DNA of 64,000 nucleotides from positions 536,864 to 600,863 of the forward strand of contig CAWCFX010000001.1 in assembly GCA_963795085.1 (NCBI GenBank). Direction: 5' to 3'. This DNA comes from an uncultured Gemmatimonadales bacterium. GTDB taxonomy: Bacteria > Gemmatimonadota > Gemmatimonadetes > Gemmatimonadales > GWC2-71-9. Positions within the stretch are counted from its first letter, which is position 1, and every line of letters starts with the position of its first letter. The notes beneath the pieces were generated by a model. It did no database searches and was not told the origin of the DNA. It saw only the letters and a program-made list of their open reading frames with translations. Of this stretch, positions 57 through 61,466 are shown one piece after another. Both the position numbers and the translations under genes were made by a program.

Positions 57-150
57 GCGGCAAGGGGGCAAGAGGGGTAAGAGGGCAAGGTTACTCCCTC
101 TTACCCTCCTGCCCCTTGCCCTCTTCCCCCTTCTTGCCCCCTCGCCCCCT
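57..150. repeat. purine-rich / pyrimidine-rich inverted repeat (long hairpin) overlapping the 3' end of nfo
   Basis: gggtaagaggg (75-85) pairs perfectly with ccctcttaccc (96-106). The arms continue as ggcaag/gggcaag units against cttgcc/ccttgcc units. Confidence 0.8.
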
Positions 151-1021
151 TTCGATACCTCCGCAATCGCCTCAACATCTTCCGGTCCAGGGTCACCAGG
201 TCATCGCCCTTGGGCGTCTCCAGCACTTTCATCACGCCGGCAAACCGCGGGTCGGTCATGATTCTCCGGAAGGGCTCCGGCCCCAGCGATCCCTCGCCGA
301 TCAGCTCGTGGCGGTCTCGGCAGGAGTGAAACGGGGTCTTGCTGTCGTTGAGGTGGATGCACCGAAGATGCTCGAGCCCGATGATCGAATCCCACCGCTC
401 CCAGACGCCGTCGTAGTCGTGGACCAGGTCATAACCGGCCGAGAACAGGTGACAGGTGTCGGCGCAGAAGCCGACCCGGCTTCGGAGGGAGGCCGGGATC
501 CTGGCCCGGAGTTCCGCCAGTTCCTCGAAGTTCGCCCCCAGCGCGGTGCCGCACCCCGCGGTGGTCTCCAGCAGCACCGTCACGTCTCCCACTCGTTCCA
601 GCGCCTCCGCGCAGCGCCGGGCGTTCCGGGCCAGCCCCCGCTCCCGGTCGTCGATATAGTTGCCCGGGTGCGACACCACCGCGGTGATTTTCAGGGCCCT
701 GCAGCGCTCCAGTTCGGCCACGAAAGACGTTGTGGATTGGGCACTTAGGTGGGGGTCGGGGGAGGCCAGGTTTATGAGGTACGAATCGTGCGAAACCACC
801 CCGTGGAGACCGCTCGCGGCGAGGGCGGCCTGAAACGACTCACAGACTTCCTGGCTGATTAGCGGCTCGCGCCACTGGTTCGGGGTCTTGGTAAAGACCT
901 GGATCGCGGTCGCCCCGATCGCCACGCCCCGTCCGGGAGCCCGGTGAACACCGCCCTGGGTGGAGACGTGCGCGCCGAGGCGTTCGTGTGCTGTCTGCTT
1001 GACACTGGTTGGCGTACGCAT
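101..1021 (-). CDS. nfo: endonuclease IV (AP endonuclease family 2)
   Basis: ORF 101..1231 trimmed to the ATG at 1021 (MRTPTSVKQ). Family motifs present: HDSYLINLAS, VVSHPGN, LETTAG, CADTCHLFSAGYD, IHLNDSK. Confidence 0.9.
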   Translation of the reverse strand: MRTPTSVKQTAHERLGAHVSTQGGVHRAPGRGVAIGATAIQVFTKTPNQWREPLISQEVCESFQAALAASGLHGVVSHDSYLINLASPDPHLSAQSTTSFVAELERCRALKITAVVSHPGNYIDDRERGLARNARRCAEALERVGDVTVLLETTAGCGTALGANFEELAELRARIPASLRSRVGFCADTCHLFSAGYDLVHDYDGVWERWDSIIGLEHLRCIHLNDSKTPFHSCRDRHELIGEGSLGPEPFRRIMTDPRFAGVMKVLETPKGDDLVTLDRKMLRRLRRYRKGARGQEGGRGQGAGG

Positions 1022-2522: not shown

Positions 2523-2733
2523 TCAATTCCAACATTCCCTCAATTCCAACATTCCCTCAATTCCCCCATTCCCTCAATTCCCCCATTCCCTCAATTCCAA
2601 CATTCCCTCAATTCCCCCATTCCCTCAATTCCCCCATTCCCTCAATTCCCCCATTCCCTCAATTCCCCCATTCCCTCAATTCCCCCATTCCCTCAATTCC
2701 CCCATTCCCTCAATTCCAACATTCCCCTAGTTC
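2523..2733. repeat. 17-bp tandem repeat, 11 full units plus partial ends (attccctcaattccNNc)
   Basis: Units start at 2534, 2551, 2568 and so on to 2704. The variable triplet is aac (units 1, 4, 11) or ccc. The array fills the gap between the convergent stops at 2490 and 2727. Confidence 0.95.
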
Positions 2734-5535: not shown

Positions 5536-5676
5536 GTGGGTCAATGGGTCAGTGGGTCAGTGGGTCCGAGAGTCCGAGGGTCCGAGGGTCAGTGGGTCAG
5601 AGGGTCAGAGGCAAAGGCAGGGTGCCACTGTCCCACTGTCCCACTGTCCCACTGTCCCACCGTCCCCCTGGCCCTC
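5536..5676. repeat. 8-nt periodic array (GNGGGTCN x9) followed by the inverted array (CCACTGTC x4-5), forming a long imperfect hairpin
   Basis: The 5' arm at 5536-5610 reads gtgggtca|atgggtca|gtgggtca and so on. The 3' arm at 5625-5676 reads ccactgtc x4. The reverse complement gacagtgg matches gtcagtgg at 7 of 8 positions per unit. Confidence 0.9.
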
Positions 5677-13509: not shown

Positions 13510-13522
13510 GAAAGGGAAGATA

Positions 13523-13582
13523 GAATGAGAAGTGAGCAGTGAGAAGTGAGAATTGGAAGGGCCTTCTCACTTCTCACCTCCC
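13523..13582. repeat. GTGAGAA-type low-complexity hairpin (terminator-like)
   Basis: gtgagaagtgagaa (13539-13552) pairs perfectly with ttctcacttctcac (13564-13577), with an 11-nt loop. It sits between the M28 stop (13595) and the next gene start (13509). Confidence 0.85.
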
Positions 13583-13594
13583 ACGGCACCCAGC

Positions 13595-32558: not shown

Positions 32559-32620
32559 ACAGGGACCGGTAGCAGTCAGGCAGAAAAAGCTGGGTTCACC
32601 ATTCTTTGCCGGAGGGACAC

Positions 32621-32878
32621 ATGTCGGCCTGGGAAGCGTCGATTGAAGCGATCGAACTGCGGCGTCGTCCGGACGATGACGACGAGTTCGAGGACGATGG
32701 CTTCACGTTCGACGACGAAGACGAGGACGACTTCGACGACGAGGACGAAGACTTCGACGACGAAGACGACGACTTCGATGATGACGACGAAGATGACATC
32801 GAAGAATTCGATTTCAACGAGGACGAGGACGAAGATGCCAAGCCCCGCCGCCGCACTCGGGGGGGAGACGGCTTCTAA
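32621..32878 (+). CDS. hyper-acidic 85-aa protein with a short basic C-terminal tail
   Basis: The ATG at 32621 is preceded by GGAGGG at good spacing. The sequence is dominated by D/E with spaced F (DDGFTFDDEDEDDFDDEDEDFDDEDDDFDDDDEDDIEEFDFNEDEDED) and ends KPRRRTRGGDGF. Confidence 0.55.
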   Translation: MSAWEASIEAIELRRRPDDDDEFEDDGFTFDDEDEDDFDDEDEDFDDEDDDFDDDDEDDIEEFDFNEDEDEDAKPRRRTRGGDGF

Positions 32879-32966: not shown

Positions 32967-33040
<74 letters not shown>

Positions 33041-36370: not shown

Positions 36371-36450
36371 CGGGCCAGCGGGCCAGTGGGTCAGCGGGTC
36401 AGTGGGTCAGCGGGTCAGTGGGTCAGTAGGCCAGTGGGTCAGTAGGTTCA
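36371..36450. repeat. 8-bp tandem repeat, about 10 units (YGGGYCAG), same family as 5536-5610
   Basis: Reads cgggccag|cgggccag|tgggtcag|cgggtcag|tgggtcag|cgggtcag|tgggtcag|taggccag|tgggtcag|taggttca. No inverted arm follows. The array ends a few nt before the SD AAGGAGG of the next gene. Confidence 0.9.
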
Positions 36451-53681: not shown

Positions 53682-53809
53682 AATTGAGGGAATGTTGGAA
53701 TTGAGGGAATGGGGGAATTGAGGGAATGTTGGAATTGAGGGAATTTTGGAATTGAAAATTCTCAATTCCCACATTCCCACATTCCCTCAATTCTATTGTT
53801 CCCTCAATT

Positions 53810-55051: not shown

Positions 55052-55136
55052 GGATCCTGGTGTCGTTTAAGTGTGGGGAGACAAAGCTAATGGAGGCGGC
55101 CGGGAAGGGCACCTGTCGCAAGACAAACACCTCGGT

Positions 55137-55467
55137 CCTCCGGATTATTCTGCGGGCCATCCCTGCCCGAACACGAAAGCACGAAAAACCAAAACACCAC
55201 GGGAAAGACAAGCAACCGCTACAGCGGTATTCTGTTCTTTCTTTTCTTTCCACTTTTGTCGTCCGTGGTTCGTGCTTTCGTGATCCGCAGGGCCAGCTTC
55301 AGGGGGATCCTCCGGGATTATTCTGCGGGCCATCCCTGCCCGAACACGAAAGCACGAAAAACCAAAACACCACGGGAAAGACAAGCAGCCGCTACAGCGG
55401 TATTCTGTTCTTTCTTTTCTTTCGACTTTTGTCGTCCGTGGTTCGTGCTTTCGTGATCCGCAGGGCC
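55137..55467. repeat. two near-identical ~158-bp tandem copies, each a long imperfect hairpin (core CACGAAAGCACGAA / TTCGTGCTTTCGTG)
   Basis: Copy 1 is 55137-55294 and copy 2 is 55309-55467, with three visible differences. The 14-bp perfect stem joins 55172-55185 to 55269-55282. The outer stem is ctgcgg/ccgcag. Confidence 0.95.
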
Positions 55468-55547
55468 GGCCTGTCACGCGAGTCGTTGTGTGGAATTCGT
55501 AATTTATCCCTGCGCCGACCGCTTCCCCCCGTTAACTTTCCCCCTCC

Positions 55548-57281
55548 ATGCCGACCTCCACGCTCGCCGCCGGGGCCGCCCGCGCCATTCAGTCGGCCTT
55601 CCTGGCCTACCATGCGCGCTTCATCGCCATCACCCGCCGGGCCAAAACCCGGTTCGAGGCGCGGGAGTGGCGGGAGGGCCAGGCCGATGCGCTGGAACGC
55701 CTCACCCTCTACCGCACCTGCGTGCAGGAGACGGTGACGGCGATCGGGGAGATGGTCGGCGGCAACGTGCGGAACGCCTTCTTCTGGCACGAGACCAAGT
55801 CCGTCCACGCCCGGCTCAGCGAGCGCCGGCTCGACACCGGGCTGGCGCGTACCTTCTTCAACTCCGTCACCCGCCGGATCTTCACCACCGTGGGCGTGGA
55901 TGCCTCCATCGAGTACCTGGACCAGCTGGCGGAGCCCGATGTCCGGCGCGACCCGGTCGAGCCGCCCTTCTGGACCTACCGGGGCGGCCGCGGCACCGCC
56001 GACCTGCTCACCGACATTTTCTCCGGGCTGCCCTTCCGCCCCGAGTTCGACGACCAGGTGCGGGATGCCGCGCGGGCCGCGGCGATCATCGACCAGCGGC
56101 TCGCCGGCCGCCCCCTGGAAGCCATCGAGGTGCTGCCGCCCATTTTCTACCGGGGCCGGGTGGCCTACATGGTGGGCCGGGTCCAGGCCGGCGGCGACCC
56201 GGTGCCGCTGCTCGTCTCGTTTCTGCATGAGCCGGAAGGCATCGTCGCCGACGCGGTCCTGATGGACGAGCGGGAAGTCAGCATCGTCTTCAGCTTCACC
56301 CGCTCCTACTTTCACGTCGAGGTGGACCGGCCCCAGCTGACCATCGCCTTCCTCCAGTCCATCATGCCCCGGAAGCCCAGCGATGAACTGTACACCGCGA
56401 TCGGCTACAACAAGCACGGCAAGACGATGTTCTACCGCAACCTGGTACGCCACCTCGACGATACCGACGACCAGTTCGAAATCGCCGAAGGAGAACCGGG
56501 CCTGGTGATGACCGTGTTCGCGCTGCCCTCGTTCAACACCGTCTTCAAGGTGATCCGCGACCGGTTCGGCCAGCCCAAGAGCACCACCCGGGAGGCGGTC
56601 CGCAACCGCTACGAGCTGGTCTTCGTGCACGACCGGGTAGGCCGGCTGGCCGATGCCCAGGAGTTCGAGTACCTCGAGTTCGCCCGGTCCCGGTTCACGC
56701 CGGAGCTGCTGCGGGAACTGGAGACCGAAGCCGCGTCCAGCCTCCGCATCGAGGGCGACCGGGTCATCATCCGCCATCTCTACACCGAACGCCGGGTTAC
56801 CCCGCTCAATCTCTATCTCAAGGGCGCCAGTCCCGGCGCGGCGGTCGAGGCCATCGTGGACTACGGCGCCGCCATCCGGGAGCTGGCGGCCGCCAATATT
56901 TTCACCGGCGACATGCTGCTCAAGAATTTCGGCGTCACCCGCCAGGGCCGGGTGATCTTCTACGACTACGATGAGCTCTGCCTGCTCACCGAATGCAACT
57001 TCCGCGCGATCCCCGAGACCGACGACCCCCTGCTCGAGATGGCGGCCGACCCCTGGTTCTCGGTCGGCGAGCACGATGTCTTCCCCGAGGAGTTCCGCGC
57101 CTTCTTCATCCTCCCCGGCCCGCTGGGCGAGGCGTTCATGCACCACCACGCCGACCTGCTGACCCTCGAGTTCTGGCGCGACATGCAGGCCCGCCAGGCC
57201 GGCGGCGAACTGCCCGAGGTGCTGCCGTACCGCGAGGAACGGCGGCTTTCCCACGCCGCGCCCGATGCCGTTTCCCACTGA
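55548..57281 (+). CDS. aceK: isocitrate dehydrogenase kinase/phosphatase AceK
   Basis: 577 aa. The N-terminus AIQSAFLAYHARFIAITRRAKTRFE and the kinase region (FTGDMLLKNFGVTRQGRVIFYDYDE) match AceK from memory. Confidence 0.9.
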   Translation: MPTSTLAAGAARAIQSAFLAYHARFIAITRRAKTRFEAREWREGQADALERLTLYRTCVQETVTAIGEMVGGNVRNAFFWHETKSVHARLSERRLDTGLARTFFNSVTRRIFTTVGVDASIEYLDQLAEPDVRRDPVEPPFWTYRGGRGTADLLTDIFSGLPFRPEFDDQVRDAARAAAIIDQRLAGRPLEAIEVLPPIFYRGRVAYMVGRVQAGGDPVPLLVSFLHEPEGIVADAVLMDEREVSIVFSFTRSYFHVEVDRPQLTIAFLQSIMPRKPSDELYTAIGYNKHGKTMFYRNLVRHLDDTDDQFEIAEGEPGLVMTVFALPSFNTVFKVIRDRFGQPKSTTREAVRNRYELVFVHDRVGRLADAQEFEYLEFARSRFTPELLRELETEAASSLRIEGDRVIIRHLYTERRVTPLNLYLKGASPGAAVEAIVDYGAAIRELAAANIFTGDMLLKNFGVTRQGRVIFYDYDELCLLTECNFRAIPETDDPLLEMAADPWFSVGEHDVFPEEFRAFFILPGPLGEAFMHHHADLLTLEFWRDMQARQAGGELPEVLPYREERRLSHAAPDAVSH

Positions 57282-60150
57282 GCTCCAGCGCCAGGCGATC
57301 GAAGCCCCGTCCGGCCCGGTCCTGGTGCTGGCCGGGCCCGGCGCCGGCAAGACCTCCTGCCTCGTCGCCCGGATCCAGTTTCTCATCGCCGCGCGCGATG
57401 TCAGGCCGGAGCGGCTCTGCGCCGTCACCTTCACCAACAAGGCCGCCGAAGAGATCGCTCTTCGCCTCAAGGCCGGGCTGGGGCGCCCCGCCGGGGACAT
57501 TACCCGCGGCACCATTCACTCCCTCTGCCTCCGGGTGCTCCGGGAGCACGGTGCCGGCGTCGGGCTGCAGTCCGGGTTCGGCGTCGCCGACGACGAGTAC
57601 CAGCACGCCATCCTGGCCCGGCTCCGGGTGCCCCGGAAGTATCGCGGCGGCCTGCTCACCCGGTTCGGCCGGCGGCGGCTCCAGAACTACGAACTCACGC
57701 CCGACGACCAGAAACTGCTGGAGCGCTACCAGGAGACGCTCCACGGCGCCAACATGGCCGACTTCGACGATCTCGTCGTGCGCACCGCCGACCTGCTCAA
57801 GGGCCGCCCCGATATCGCCGACGCGGTGGCGGCCCAGTGGGACTACCTGCTGGTGGACGAGTGCCAGGACCTGAACGCCCGGCAGTACGAGATCATCCGC
57901 CGCCTGGTGGAACCCCACGGCAACCTCTTCGCCGTCGGCGACGACGAGCAGTCCATCTTCGGCTGGGCCAGCGCGGACCCGCTGATCCTCCGCCAGCTGG
58001 CCAACGACTTCCTCGTCTCCCGCCCCATCATCCTCGACGAGAACTGCCGCTGCTCGGCGAAGATCTTCCTCGCCGCCCGGCGGCTCATCGAGCAGAATCC
58101 CCCGCTGTTCGAGAAGGGCCTCCGGGCCCGGCGCGAGTCGCCCTGGGAGGTCGAAGCCTTCACCTTCGCCGACGAGGGAGACGAGGCCGCCTGGGTCGTC
58201 GCCGATATCCTCCGGGACCGGGCCGAGTCGGGCACGCCGTGGGGCGAGTACGGCATCCTGTACCGCCGCCACGACAGCGGCGAGCTGCTCGAGGGGCGCC
58301 TCCTCGCCGCCGGCATCCCCTGCCGCCTGAGCCGGGGCCGCGCCATCGGCGACGACCGCGTGATCGGCCAGGTCCTGGCCTCGCTCCGGGTGATGCTGGC
58401 CCCCGCCGACCAGGTCGCCGTCGAGGCGCTGGCGGAGCTGGTCCTGCCCGGCATGCTCGTGGACCAGGTGCGGACCCATCACATGGCGGGCGGGTTCCTG
58501 CCCGGCCTCCGGCTGTATGCCATCGCGCATAAGGGAGAGCCGGACGCGAAGAAAGCCTGGCGCTTCATCTACGCGGTGGAGAACCTCCGCGGCATCCGCC
58601 GCGCCCAGCGCTCCCTGGCCGGCCTGGTCAGCGCGGTGCTTTCCCAGGGTGTGGGGACCTACAGGAACCCGCTGGAGGCGGAACCGGTCAGCCTCGCGCT
58701 CACCGATCCCGCGGCCTTTCCCGGCGCGCCGGATCTCGCCGACCGTCTCGCCCGGGTGCGCCGGAGCGGCGGCCGCATCTGGATTCCCCCGTCGGGCGGC
58801 CTCGAGCTGGCCATTCGCGGCATGCTGGTCAAGGCCGGCTTCACCCTGATGACCATGGGCAGCCCCGCCGCGCTGGAGCCGGACGGCCTGGACCTCGCTC
58901 CGCTCCCGCCGGGGTTCCCCCTTCTTCTCTTCAAGGCTCTCCAGCTGGAAGAGAGCCGGACCTGGGACGCCCCCCAGCGCGACTTCGTCGCGTTCGATCT
59001 CGAGACCACCGACAACGACGTGGACGAGTGCGAGATCATCGAGATCGGCGCCGTGCGGGTGCGGGACGGCCAGGTCGTGGCCACCTTCGAGTCGCTGGTG
59101 CGCGGCGGCCGTCCCATCTCGCCCCGGGCCACCGCGGTGCACGGGTACGCCGACAGCCACGTCGCGTCCGCGCCGCCCTTCGCCCAGGCGTGGGAACGGT
59201 TCCGCGCGTTCGTGGGCAACGATGTGCTGGTCGCCCACAACGGGCTCCACTTCGACGTGCCGGTGCTCAAGCGCATGGCGCACGGGTTCCCCGGGCTGGA
59301 CGACCTCGTCTTCTACGACAGCCTCCCGCTGGCGCGCTCCCTCTCCACCCTGAGCGCCCGGCTCACCGACCTGGCCGATCGCTATGGCGTAGAAAAGGGG
59401 ACCTCGCACCACGCACTGGACGACGCCAGGGCGCTGGCCGGCGTGTATGGCCATCTCCACCGGGTTCGGCTGGAGCGGGCCCGCAAGGCGGCGCTCACCA
59501 GCCTGCTCGATTACCTCGGATTGGCGTTCGCGCTGGAGGGGAGAGAGCGTTCCGGCGAGGCGGCGGACCTGTTCAGGATCTGTTCCACCTACGCGCTGGG
59601 CCGCTTCGGCGAGAGCCTGGATACCTACGCCCGTGAGCGGCCCGACGGTGCCCCGTCGCTGGACGAGGTCATTGACCGGCTCGGCGGGCAACGGCTGATG
59701 GACCGGCTCCGCACCGAGCGGCGCCCCGAAGACCGCTTCCCCGGCGCCCTGGCCCGCCTCGGCGCCCTCGTCCTGGCCAGCGAGTCCCCCGACCTGGACC
59801 AGGCCATCCGGGCCCTGCTCGACCGGGTGGCGCTGTCCCGGTCCGAAGGCATCGAGCGGGAGCGGGACCGCGTCAACCTCCTCACCCTGCACGCCACCAA
59901 GGGCCTGGAGTTCAGCCGGGTCTATATCCTGGGCGTGGAAGACAACGAATTGCCCGGAAGCCAGGCGCTGGCCCAGCAGCACCTCGGCGACATCGAAGAA
60001 GCCCGGCGCCTGCTCTACGTGGGGATGACCCGCGCCAAGGACCGCCTGGTGCTCACCCGCGCCGACTTCCGCCGGGGCAGCCCCGGCGGCGATTCCGGGT
60101 TCCTTCGGGAAATCGGGTTGGTACTCACCGCAACTGCCGCTCGCGAGTAG
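57265..60150 (+). CDS. UvrD/PcrA-type SF1 helicase with an embedded DEDDh 3'-5' exonuclease domain
   Basis: AGPGAGKTS (motif I) and LLVDECQDLN (motif II). The insertion carries FDLETTD, AHNGLHFDVPVL and HHALDDARA (Exo I-III). After it come LHATKGLEFSRVYILG and YVGMTRAKDRL (motifs V-VI). Confidence 0.85.
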   Translation: MPFPTELQRQAIEAPSGPVLVLAGPGAGKTSCLVARIQFLIAARDVRPERLCAVTFTNKAAEEIALRLKAGLGRPAGDITRGTIHSLCLRVLREHGAGVGLQSGFGVADDEYQHAILARLRVPRKYRGGLLTRFGRRRLQNYELTPDDQKLLERYQETLHGANMADFDDLVVRTADLLKGRPDIADAVAAQWDYLLVDECQDLNARQYEIIRRLVEPHGNLFAVGDDEQSIFGWASADPLILRQLANDFLVSRPIILDENCRCSAKIFLAARRLIEQNPPLFEKGLRARRESPWEVEAFTFADEGDEAAWVVADILRDRAESGTPWGEYGILYRRHDSGELLEGRLLAAGIPCRLSRGRAIGDDRVIGQVLASLRVMLAPADQVAVEALAELVLPGMLVDQVRTHHMAGGFLPGLRLYAIAHKGEPDAKKAWRFIYAVENLRGIRRAQRSLAGLVSAVLSQGVGTYRNPLEAEPVSLALTDPAAFPGAPDLADRLARVRRSGGRIWIPPSGGLELAIRGMLVKAGFTLMTMGSPAALEPDGLDLAPLPPGFPLLLFKALQLEESRTWDAPQRDFVAFDLETTDNDVDECEIIEIGAVRVRDGQVVATFESLVRGGRPISPRATAVHGYADSHVASAPPFAQAWERFRAFVGNDVLVAHNGLHFDVPVLKRMAHGFPGLDDLVFYDSLPLARSLSTLSARLTDLADRYGVEKGTSHHALDDARALAGVYGHLHRVRLERARKAALTSLLDYLGLAFALEGRERSGEAADLFRICSTYALGRFGESLDTYARERPDGAPSLDEVIDRLGGQRLMDRLRTERRPEDRFPGALARLGALVLASESPDLDQAIRALLDRVALSRSEGIERERDRVNLLTLHATKGLEFSRVYILGVEDNELPGSQALAQQHLGDIEEARRLLYVGMTRAKDRLVLTRADFRRGSPGGDSGFLREIGLVLTATAARE

Positions 60151-60184
60151 AAGACTCCACTGACGTTCGAGCTTCCGCAACTGC

Positions 60185-60655
60185 CTGTCGCGAAAGCACG
60201 AAAGACCGCGGAAGCACGAAGAAAAGCAACAACTGGAACTACAAGAAAAGCAACAGCTAGAACTACAAAGAACGAAATAAGAAGAAATCAGTAGTGCTTC
60301 ACCTGTTTCATTTCTTTCGTATTTTGTTGTTCGGCTGTCATCATGCGTGTTTGTTCTTTTCTATTTTGTCGTCAGGCTGTTCGCACATCAGACAGATCGA
60401 ACTACAAAGAACACAATAGACGACATTGGATCTCTTCTTCCATCGGTTTCGTTCTCTTTCGTGTTTTGTTGTACCGGCTGTTGTTGTTCGGCTGTCATCA
60501 TGCGTGTTTGTTCTTTTCTATTTTGTCGTCAGGCTGTTCGCACATCAGACAGATCGAACTACAAAGAACGAAATAGAAGAAATTGGATCTCTTCTTTCAC
60601 CTGTTCTGTTTCTTTCGTGCTTTGTTGTGCCGCTGTTGTTGTGCTACTGTTCTCA
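60185..60655. repeat. AT-rich repeat island: 157-bp periodic array of purine-arm/pyrimidine-arm hairpins
   Basis: The 89-bp block at 60324-60412 is identical to 60481-60569. There are hairpin units at about 60258-60330, 60399-60480 and 60556-60642. aaagcacgaaag (60193-60204) is inverted at 60612-60623. Confidence 0.95.
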
Positions 60656-60662
60656 TGCCAGC

Positions 60663-61466
60663 CTACTTTCCCCCGCCCAGCGCCAACCGCACCTCTTTCC
60701 CTTCGACCTCGACCGGGTAGGTCCCGATGGCCTTCTTGGCGGGGCCCCTCGTCGCCTTCCCGGTGGCCACGTCGAACTGGGACCCGTGCCAGAGGCACTG
60801 CACCGTGCCGCAGATCAGCACCCCGCCGGCCAGCGATCCGCCGCGGTGGGTGCAGGCATCGTCGAAGGCCACGTAGCCGTCCGCGGTCCGCCCCAGCACG
60901 ATGCGCCGGCCGTTGATGTGCAGCAGCTTCATCTGGTCCACCTCGAGCTCGTCGCTGGCGGCCACCACCAGCGGCTCGCCTGGTGCCGGGGTGATCGTCG
61001 CCTCGTTCCACCGGCCGGCCGCCGCGTAGCGGTGGTCCACGCTGATCAGGTTCCGGGAGACCAGCGTGCCCCCCTGCCATCCGGCATATCCCAGCAGCAG
61101 CACGCCGGCGCCTTCCAGCAGCAGGGTGAGGGTGGACGGCGGCGGCGTCGCGCCGGCCCGGAGCAGCCACGCGGTCGCGAAGAGTGCCACCATCACCAGG
61201 TTGGCGATCATGTGGCGGGTCGCGCGCGCCTTGCCCGAACTCCCGGGCGGCACGGTGAAGAAGTAGTCGATGAACCCGGGGATCGCCGCCAGCAGGGCGG
61301 TGCCCACCCCGGCGATGACGAGATAGTATCCCACCAGGGTGAACGTCGGCCGGTCCAGCAGGATACCCAGGAAATCGAAGGCGGTTCCCCCCGCCAGGAA
61401 GGCGATCGGGAAGGGAATCAGCATCGGGTGAATCGGGTGGCCCTTCAGGCTGGCTGTGCTGCGCAT
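60663..61466 (-). CDS. DUF2231 membrane domain fused to a Rieske [2Fe-2S] domain
   Basis: N-terminus HPIHPMLIPFPIA with four TM helices. The C-terminal Rieske motifs are CTHRGGSL and CLWHGSQF. Confidence 0.75.
   Translation of the reverse strand: MRSTASLKGHPIHPMLIPFPIAFLAGGTAFDFLGILLDRPTFTLVGYYLVIAGVGTALLAAIPGFIDYFFTVPPGSSGKARATRHMIANLVMVALFATAWLLRAGATPPPSTLTLLLEGAGVLLLGYAGWQGGTLVSRNLISVDHRYAAAGRWNEATITPAPGEPLVVAASDELEVDQMKLLHINGRRIVLGRTADGYVAFDDACTHRGGSLAGGVLICGTVQCLWHGSQFDVATGKATRGPAKKAIGTYPVEVEGKEVRLALGGGK

Follow-up and report, generated by a model that had tools for sequence, protein, structure and literature searches.

An AT-rich hairpin island between convergent genes of a Gemmatimonadales bacterium: a probable short-unit repeat hairpin, ordinary for its genome and unlikely to be a distinct RNA gene

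What is the AT-rich island that fills the gap between two convergent genes at positions 60151-60662 of a 64-kb stretch of DNA (the window) from an uncultured Gemmatimonadales bacterium? A sequence-only reading of the window had described it as a periodic array of long purine/pyrimidine hairpins and had suggested a tandem structured non-coding RNA (ncRNA) locus, an element of the MITE type (miniature inverted-repeat transposable element) or a landing pad for nucleoid proteins. We analyzed the island by repeat detection, folding and homology searches and compared the window with a set of 61 loci (690 kb) from relatives. On balance we read it as a short-unit inverted-repeat hairpin element of the CACGAAAG-octamer type, amplified by slippage and now decaying, which would act at most as a passive block of hairpins at the 3' ends of its neighbours. 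The island is real but ordinary for this genome, and it is very unlikely to be a distinct RNA gene.

Recounting the letters bore out both the composition and the periodicity that had been described. The lines of 60 nt starting at 60241, 60301 and 60361 hold 21, 22 and 25 G+C, against 45 in the coding line at 60001, and in sliding windows the G+C content (GC) is 0.41-0.47 within the island and 0.68-0.75 in its flanks. Within the window the island is the longest such stretch and the one with the lowest GC. The strands are unequal: a purine-rich left part (60186-60297) opens with CGCGAAAGCACGAAAGACCGCGGAAGCACGAAG, which corresponds to a 5' arm of the CACGAAAG hairpin type, and T makes up 41% of the plus strand in the remainder of the island. 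This AT-richness and asymmetry follow from the repeat unit (ACRAAAG / CACGAAAG), which is A- and purine-rich and whose complement is T-rich; because the unit is A-rich and not G-rich, the island also has no G-quadruplex potential. A block of 89 nt (60324-60412) recurs identically at 60481-60569, with a period of 157 nt, and the match ends exactly at both sides. When mismatches are allowed, the repeat extends to 60324-60503 and 60481-60658, which are 90% identical over 180 nt (blastn), and the array amounts to about 2.6 copies of the 157-nt unit, counting from 60253. The 68-bp remainders that follow each block are diverged but alignable, as had been stated, and both contain ATTGGATCTCTTCTT (at 60425 and 60582). 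In addition, the 19-mer GAACTACAAAGAACGAAAT occurs three times at no more than three mismatches, for a chance expectation of 0.00.

Shorter periodicities are nested within these units. Internal lags of 7, 14, 18, 24 and 42 nt rise above shuffled sequences, those of 18 and 24 nt in the purine part and those of 7, 14 and 42 nt in the pyrimidine part, and Tandem Repeats Finder reports periods 14 and 24 only. At 60189-60220 the short unit can be read head-to-tail in degenerate form as CGCGAAAG-CACGAAAG-...-AAGCACGAAG. Microrepeats of 14 nt (TTGTTGTNCSGCTG) sit at both junctions between 157-nt units, which points to an origin of the array by slippage or unequal exchange. The inverted repeat that had been seen at the island's edges is perfect and in fact 13 nt long. 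Its arm AAAGCACGAAAGA, which had been taken to close the island, has a second partner, TCTTTCGTGTTTT at 60455-60467, with which it pairs at 92%. The simplest view of the repeat is that it represents the stem motif of the CACGAAAG hairpin type together with its complement. We also observed a 19-nt direct repeat (60128-60146 / 60175-60193, 89%, spacing 47) whose first copy is made of the last codons of the upstream gene and whose second copy adjoins the first CGCGAAAG unit of the island; the 3' end of that gene may once have undergone a small duplication that left this repeat behind.

Could the duplication have been produced by the assembly? An independent Logan contig, assembled from the short reads of run ERR12037361, carries an identical copy of the downstream Rieske gene and stops 123 nt past its stop codon. 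This end corresponds to 60540 in the window and falls 30 nt short of the right boundary (60569/60570) of the 89-nt exact repeat. Logan unitigs are built at k=31, and a de Bruijn unitig of k=31 must break there if the block has two different right-hand neighbours in the reads. The independent contig thus breaks where an exact repeat predicts, and the suspicion of an artefact, which had been raised as a way of refuting the duplication, is unlikely to be right. The island is a place where short-read assemblies fragment.

Folding of the units, proposed earlier as a check, recovered the three pairs of purine-rich and pyrimidine-rich arms that had been described. The three hairpins, H1 to H3, are each about 88 nt long, with the purine-rich arm first, and reach minimum free energies (MFE) of -19 to -23 kcal/mol; their z scores compare the MFE with that of dinucleotide shuffles. 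H1 and H3 are 79% identical over 89 nt, in an alignment of 60253-60338 with 60549-60636. The stems are AT-rich, imperfect and about 30 bp long, and no U run follows them. H2 is the most decayed copy: the changes CGAAAT to ACAAT and GAAGAAAT to GACGACAT in its 5' arm break pairs and are uncompensated. The consensus fold of the three copies has an energy of -10.3 kcal/mol with an unfavourable covariation term of +1.78, and only one of the 30 pairs of the consensus structure shows a double change. A covariance model of H1-H3, which it had been hoped would bring out compensatory changes in related genomes, retrieved only the three island copies from the window and the 61 loci of relatives. Weak matches of this model in L010, an Acidobacteriota metagenome-assembled genome (MAG), were set aside as unrelated CACAAAG-repeat hairpins.

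The island is not alone in the window. Seven other intergenic or gene-edge stretches carry short-unit arrays or hairpins, several of them as inverted pairs (Table 1). Hairpins of the CACGAAAG-octamer kind usually have as their 5' arm the sequence CGCGAAAGCACGAAAG..., which forms the left edge of the island. The edge CGCGAAAGCACGAAAGACCGCGGAAGCACGAAG aligns, via TC[AG]CG-AAAGCACGAA, with the 5' arms of the hairpins at 55137-55470 (CACGAAAGCACGAA) and of two hairpins in L088, a contig from a relative. In blastn searches the purine part matched the same neighbouring island (60191-60207 with 55174-55190, 94%), as did the pyrimidine part (60306-60333 with 55411-55438, 82%), and the two matches lie in the same order. 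A hidden Markov model of the pyrimidine module found its five known copies and gave marginal matches in the 55.2-kb island (E 0.4-1.2). We also considered a single 33-nt module, repeated some 12 times and in both orientations, as the building block of the island, which proved only loosely true.

We then asked what related genomes hold at the corresponding positions. The best genome matches to the Rieske protein are in MAGs of Gemmatimonadales, Gemmatimonadota and Vicinamibacterales (62-67% amino acid identity), two of which, one of Gemmatimonadota and one of Gemmatimonadales, have an adjoining UvrD-like gene; the nearest protein among 5.8 billion is 73% identical. Taken together, the matches place the organism probably in the Gemmatimonadota. 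Six syntenic contigs were recovered (L081, L082, L087, L088, L089 and L094). Two other spacers of the window gave a consistent picture. Between aceK and icd a short-repeat hairpin is present in 4/4 relatives examined (L081, L087, L088 and L089) as well as in the window, and between icd and the M15 gene in 3/3 (L081, L088 and L089) and again in the window. The repeat units at these two sites vary by genome (CACGAAAG, GAATTGAGGGAATG, GTAAGCG, GTGAACG and CACGAAA). The position is conserved while the repeat sequence turns over.

The same class is widespread. In L088 the CACGAAA(G) unit of the window occurs in four to five spacers within 18.8 kb, and a clean hairpin of CACGAAAGCACGAAATGACGAAAGCACGAA and its complement lies at 825-915. 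Arrays of 7-9-nt units followed by an inverted array are frequent in the Gemmatimonadota, Acidobacteriota and Chitinophagaceae loci. In the Acidobacteriota MAG mentioned above, hairpins of CACAAAG(R) repeats and their complement (L010 8090-8169 and 10545-10625) directly follow stop codons and resemble the ACAAAG/CACGAAAG units of the window. A survey took in 35 spacers, each 90 nt or longer, from the window and from five syntenic relatives; they were scored against mononucleotide shuffles, which makes the z values somewhat generous. A z of -3 or below was reached by 7/12 convergent spacers (median z -5.8), 5/8 co-directional spacers (median -4.1) and 6/15 divergent spacers (median -2.4). About half of the surveyed spacers thus reach this level, with hairpins made by opposed arrays of 7-9-nt or 17-nt units, and there is a weak trend for strong hairpins to lean towards spacers that hold a gene 3' end. 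Because they lean in this way and persist at orthologous positions despite turnover, the class would seem to have some function.

Table 1 Features of the island, its flanking genes and kindred repeat elements. Coordinates are those of the window unless a contig of a relative is named.
Feature	Coordinates	Strand	Description
Whole spacer	60151..60662	.	512 nt, stop codon to stop codon; GC 0.43; MFE -140 kcal/mol, z -2.2 vs shuffles
Purine-rich left part	60186..60297	+	A 0.50, T 0.08; 72% purine; degenerate tandem units, lags 18 and 24 nt
157-nt unit A	60324..60480	.	55-nt pyrimidine-rich spacer, then hairpin H2
157-nt unit B	60481..60636	.	first 89 nt identical to unit A, remainder about 85%
Third unit, start only	60637..60658	.	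aligns with 60482-60503
Inverted repeat, left arm AAAGCACGAAAGA	60193..60205	+	13 nt, perfect with 60611-60623
Inverted repeat, right arm TCTTTCGTGCTTT	60611..60623	+	inside 3' arm of H3
14-nt microrepeat TTGTTGTNCSGCTG	60466..60495	+	2.1 copies at unit A/B junction; second set 60622-60651 at B/C junction
Hairpin H1	60250..60336	both	MFE -22.8 (+), -21.9 (-) kcal/mol; z -3.3, -2.7
Hairpin H2	60392..60480	both	MFE -19.9, -18.8 kcal/mol; z -1.35, -0.97
Hairpin H3	60549..60636	both	MFE -20.4, -20.8 kcal/mol; z -1.9, -2.2
UvrD-like helicase with inserted RNase_T exonuclease domain	57265..60150	+	961 aa; 3' end at island
DUF2231 membrane domain-Rieske [2Fe-2S] fusion	60663..61466	-	267 aa; 3' end at island
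icd / aceK repeat, divergent genes	55136-55467		1.9 tandem copies (98% identical, period 173) of 173-nt hairpin on CACGAAAGCACGAA unit; -55, -61 kcal/mol, z -5.2
Hairpin filling gap between two convergent stop codons	53671-53812		very stable, exact fit to the gap; arms of GAATTGAGGGAATGTTG repeats; z -8, -10
Direct array, convergent genes	2523-2726		12 direct copies of complementary 17-mer TCAATTCCCCCATTCCC; no inverted partner
Octamer hairpin, co-directional genes	5538-5674		GGGTCAGW octamers opposite CCACTGTC octamers, hairpin-forming
GGGTCAGW direct array	36372-36447		ends about 10 nt before Shine-Dalgarno and ATG
Heptamer hairpin	13522-13590		
Short-unit hairpin	59-151		
aceK-icd spacers	window 55052-55547; L081 14675-14819; L087 16465-16578; L088 14632-14863; L089 14893-15080		
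icd-M15 spacers	window 53682-53809; L081 16062-16186; L088 16073-16252; L089 16326-16503		

How would such an island arise, and what could it do? We propose that a CACGAAAG-type hairpin grew in its interior and 3' arm, through replication slippage or through unequal exchange between short direct repeats. Such an expansion would leave periodicities of 7, 14, 24 and 42 nt nested in one another and, as its latest product, the 2.6 tandem copies of 157 nt, now decaying; in this last step slippage probably took place between the 14-nt microrepeats found where the units join. The genes on both sides end at the island, as had been noted, so that the transcripts of the UvrD-like gene (plus strand) and the DUF2231-Rieske gene (minus strand) converge on it. 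Each transcript would read an A/C-rich, U-poor tract and then the complementary U-rich arms, and would form long imperfect hairpins at the shared 3' end. These could stop or stall RNA polymerase, block 3'-exonucleases or limit convergent (antisense) read-through. Such effects are established for repetitive extragenic palindromic (REP) elements and for bidirectional terminators.

Several results weigh against this proposal. For their class the island hairpins are weak, with z scores of -1 to -3.3 compared with -5 to -10 in the neighbouring elements, and the island as a whole reaches only -2.2. The link to the CACGAAAG family consists of short motifs (13-28 nt) in low-complexity sequence, and the covariance model of H1-H3 failed to retrieve the 55.2-kb island. 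A terminator scan gave two weak sites for 1.2 expected, neither of them H1, H2 or H3, and these hairpins do not have the short G+C-rich stem, the 3-8-nt loop and the U-tract of a canonical intrinsic terminator. Hairpins of this class also lie between divergent genes (aceK-icd), and related arrays are direct only (2523-2726 and 36372-36447), so that a role at 3' ends cannot explain the whole class. The site itself is not conserved. In L088 and L003 an overlap of the Rieske and UvrD genes leaves no spacer, the junction spacer of L081 (471 nt, normal GC) has no similarity to the island, and that of L002 (190 nt) is unrelated. In other relatives the two genes are separated by further genes, a DoxX gene in L089 and L094 and a ketoacyl synthase with other genes in L082 and L087, the insert of L082 including a 1309-aa protein. 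This indicates that the Rieske/UvrD junction is a hotspot of gene-content change. Since relatives have either no spacer or unrelated DNA at this site, and the hairpins of the island are weak and decayed, any function of this copy would be dispensable.

The same turnover fits the main rival, which holds that the island is a functionless by-product, neutral low-complexity DNA that slippage and tandem duplication left behind in an insertion-tolerant spacer, with no part in RNA or DNA metabolism. The recent duplication, with its exact 89-nt block and microrepeat junctions, agrees with this, as do the lack of compensatory changes, the folding of H2 at the level of shuffled sequence and the absence of any homologue from the 690 kb of relatives and from the metagenome, viral, phage and plasmid searches. 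However, the folds of H1 and H3 remain more stable than those of shuffled sequences (z -1.9 to -3.3), and hairpins of the class stand at aceK-icd in five genomes and at icd-M15 in four, the window included, despite complete turnover of the unit. In the class as a whole, pairing thus seems to be kept up or to arise anew. We regard an island wholly without function as possible but less likely. The proposal of a tandem structured ncRNA has fared worse. In its most specific form, each 157-nt unit would be a small RNA (sRNA) gene on the minus strand, A/C-rich with (CAA)n-like single-stranded tracts and a hairpin, serving as a sponge for a protein of the Hfq/Crc or CsrA type. The minus-strand units do open with A-rich, U-poor tracts (GCACAACAACAGCGGCACAACAAAGCACGAAAGAAACAG) followed by a hairpin, the minus strand of the island has the composition A 0.41, C 0.20, G 0.22 and U 0.17, and there is a non-significant match to CrcZ (10.1 bits against a gathering score of 95, E 2.7). 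But the A-richness follows from the repeat unit and, in the island's left part, belongs to the plus strand, a promoter scan gave no sigma-70-like site, and neither sequence nor position is kept in any relative. With the unfavourable covariation term, the shuffle-like fold of H2 and no Rfam family at threshold, sRNA genes are very unlikely here.

Mobility would account for an inverted repeat near both edges. According to this explanation the island is a MITE- or REP-like element, nested or tandemly inserted, with the 13-nt perfect repeat as its terminal inverted repeats; the 19-nt direct repeat at the left border would suit it, and the unit is dispersed, since the related motif CGAAAGCACGAAA recurs in L088 spacers and in the neighbouring island 5 kb off. 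The dispersal, however, concerns an 8-nt unit, which does not amount to an element with ends of its own. Searches of the window, of the 690 kb of relatives and of the JGI metagenome, viral, phage and plasmid sets brought up no further copy of either the 157-nt unit or the whole island. The units stand head-to-tail with microrepeat junctions, no target-site duplication surrounds the inverted repeat, and one of its arms has its second partner inside the island. The MITE suggestion thus appears highly improbable. Lower still we rank a role at the level of DNA, in which a meltable or cruciform-forming AT-rich tract would be a platform for nucleoid-associated proteins or a topological barrier between convergent units. 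It would agree with the lowest GC of the window, with the many inverted repeats and with the presence of the class in spacers of every orientation, divergent promoters included, which fits a role independent of transcript ends. Against it, no binding motif or protein is known, the position is not conserved in relatives, the imperfect stems disfavour cruciform extrusion, and pure purine or pyrimidine runs do not exceed 11 nt, for which reason H-DNA (triplex) was discarded as well. A replication origin, terminus or dif site, considered in view of the AT-richness and the converging genes, gained no support: the GC skew has no switch and no feature in its favour appeared.

A more speculative idea concerns the class and not only the island. 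Hairpins of the CACGAAAG type might be recognition or loading sites for a lineage-specific factor that binds RNA or single-stranded DNA, such as a cold-shock or Hfq-like binder of A-rich 7-8-mers, or an enzyme that spreads the repeats. We hold this to be unlikely. Were it true, it would account for the persistence of hairpins, their sequence changing, at fixed intergenic positions in different genera, and the three hairpins of the island with their A/C-rich single-stranded tracts would become a tandem sRNA or protein-sponge locus.

At the gathering threshold Rfam found only the tRNA at 32967 in the whole window and nothing in the island, in line with the earlier statement that no described RNA family matches. 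With permissive settings the best matches in 60050-60750 were mir-1270 (18.1 bits, threshold 90) and CrcZ (10.1 bits, threshold 95), all with E of at least 0.7. A 28-nt degenerate motif had no match in JGI metagenome contigs, the 19-mer had four matches in viral contigs, none extending past 20-26 nt and all consistent with chance, and blastn found no match in phage and plasmid collections. Coding is unlikely. The island is strictly intergenic, occupying the gap between the stop codons at 60150 and 60663, and the open reading frames (ORFs) 60343..60576 and 60347..60916 merely read through its T-rich repeats, as the sequence-only reading had concluded. No Shine-Dalgarno motif was found anywhere in the island, in contrast to the AAGGAGG before an ATG elsewhere in the window (36455). 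Small peptides from minus-strand ORFs (MRTVAQQQRHNKARKKQNR and MMTAEQQ...) were rejected because they have no Shine-Dalgarno motif and differ between copies. The ORFs of the island are composition artefacts.

REP elements and bacterial interspersed mosaic elements (BIME) of enterobacteria and pseudomonads are dispersed intergenic hairpin repeats of alternating orientation, often at 3' ends or between convergent genes, which act as mRNA stabilisers or terminators. A REP is an imperfect palindrome of 20-40 nt with a GTAG/CTAC tip recognised by a RAYT transposase. The unit of the island is by comparison a non-palindromic 7-8-mer, and its hairpins come from opposed arrays; within the conserved GAACTACAAAG there is a CTAC. 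Among described phenomena, the intergenic GGGAATC heptamer of Xanthomonas comes closest, and the short tandemly repeated repetitive (STRR) sequences of cyanobacteria are also close. In Xanthomonas, GGGAATC heptamers form paired opposite-strand arrays able to fold into stem-loops, in 70-75 cases per genome (Rehm et al. 2015, PMC4692102), and lie between convergent, co-directional and divergent genes (PMC4692102). The island shares with them a short (7-8 nt) tandem unit, a nearly always intergenic position, dispersal of the unit and an inverted partner. It thus has the features of a short-unit inverted-array class: a tandem unit, its recurrence (55136-55467 and L088), the inverted partner and the intergenic location. 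Unlike the Xanthomonas repeats, its unit is A-rich (CACGAAAG), its arrays are degenerate, it belongs to a different phylum and it adds a higher-order unit of 157 nt that holds a whole hairpin.

The STRR of Calothrix and Nostoc (cited in PMC4692102 and PMC4679880) are lineage-typical intergenic short tandem repeats with several unit types per genome, the units being heptamers of unknown function, all of which recalls the present elements. However, STRR are mostly direct repeats, with few inverted pairs reported for Nostoc (PMC4692102), and they have no sequence similarity to the island unit. Bidirectional intrinsic terminators (Ju et al. 2019, cited in PMC13613805) likewise lie between convergent stop codons and have hairpins that fold on both strands; they differ from the island, which has no short G+C-rich stem or flanking U/A tracts and whose three hairpins are long and imperfect as well as AT-rich. 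A Porphyromonas gingivalis MITE with an internal minisatellite (PMC4596501) resembles the island in combining inverted repeats with internal tandem repeats in an intergenic position. It is reported to have defined terminal inverted repeats and many dispersed copies, unlike the island, for which none was found in the sets searched. We found no description of such elements for Gemmatimonadota in the literature.

By itself the island matters little; it marks a spacer tolerant of repeat expansion. The abundance and persistence of its class are more interesting, as is the UvrD-downstream element described below. If the persistence of hairpins holds genome-wide, these genomes would offer a tractable case for the marking of transcript ends without canonical U-tract terminators and for the way in which short-unit repeats spread. 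AT-rich hairpin islands in such genomes should not be annotated as novel ncRNA genes.

Two further observations were made in the course of this analysis. In the window, a small ORF at 32606-32878, just upstream of the sole tRNA gene (32967-33040), is made up mostly of GACGAAGACGACGACTTCGAC-type repeats; the peptide predicted from it would be extremely acidic and rich in D, E and F. The other concerns four of the relatives, in which a conserved, apparently structured non-coding element of normal GC lies directly downstream of the UvrD-like gene, in the place taken by the AT-rich island in the window (L081:8840-9270, L082:14706-15028, L087:10600-11031 and L094:6690-6990). This element is absent from the window and had no Rfam, tRNA or tmRNA match in the four relatives. 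It is made of one or two tandem units with the 26-mer CCTCCGCCCCCTATAGAGGGAATATC, which is exact in L081, L082 and L087 and has one substitution and one extra C in L094, and it contains a hairpin of about 70 nt ending in ...CAGUCCACCA. Only on the UvrD-sense strand are its substitutions compatible with G-U pairs (consensus -38.7 vs -26.3 kcal/mol), and we consider it a candidate for an unknown 3'-untranslated-region element or sRNA.

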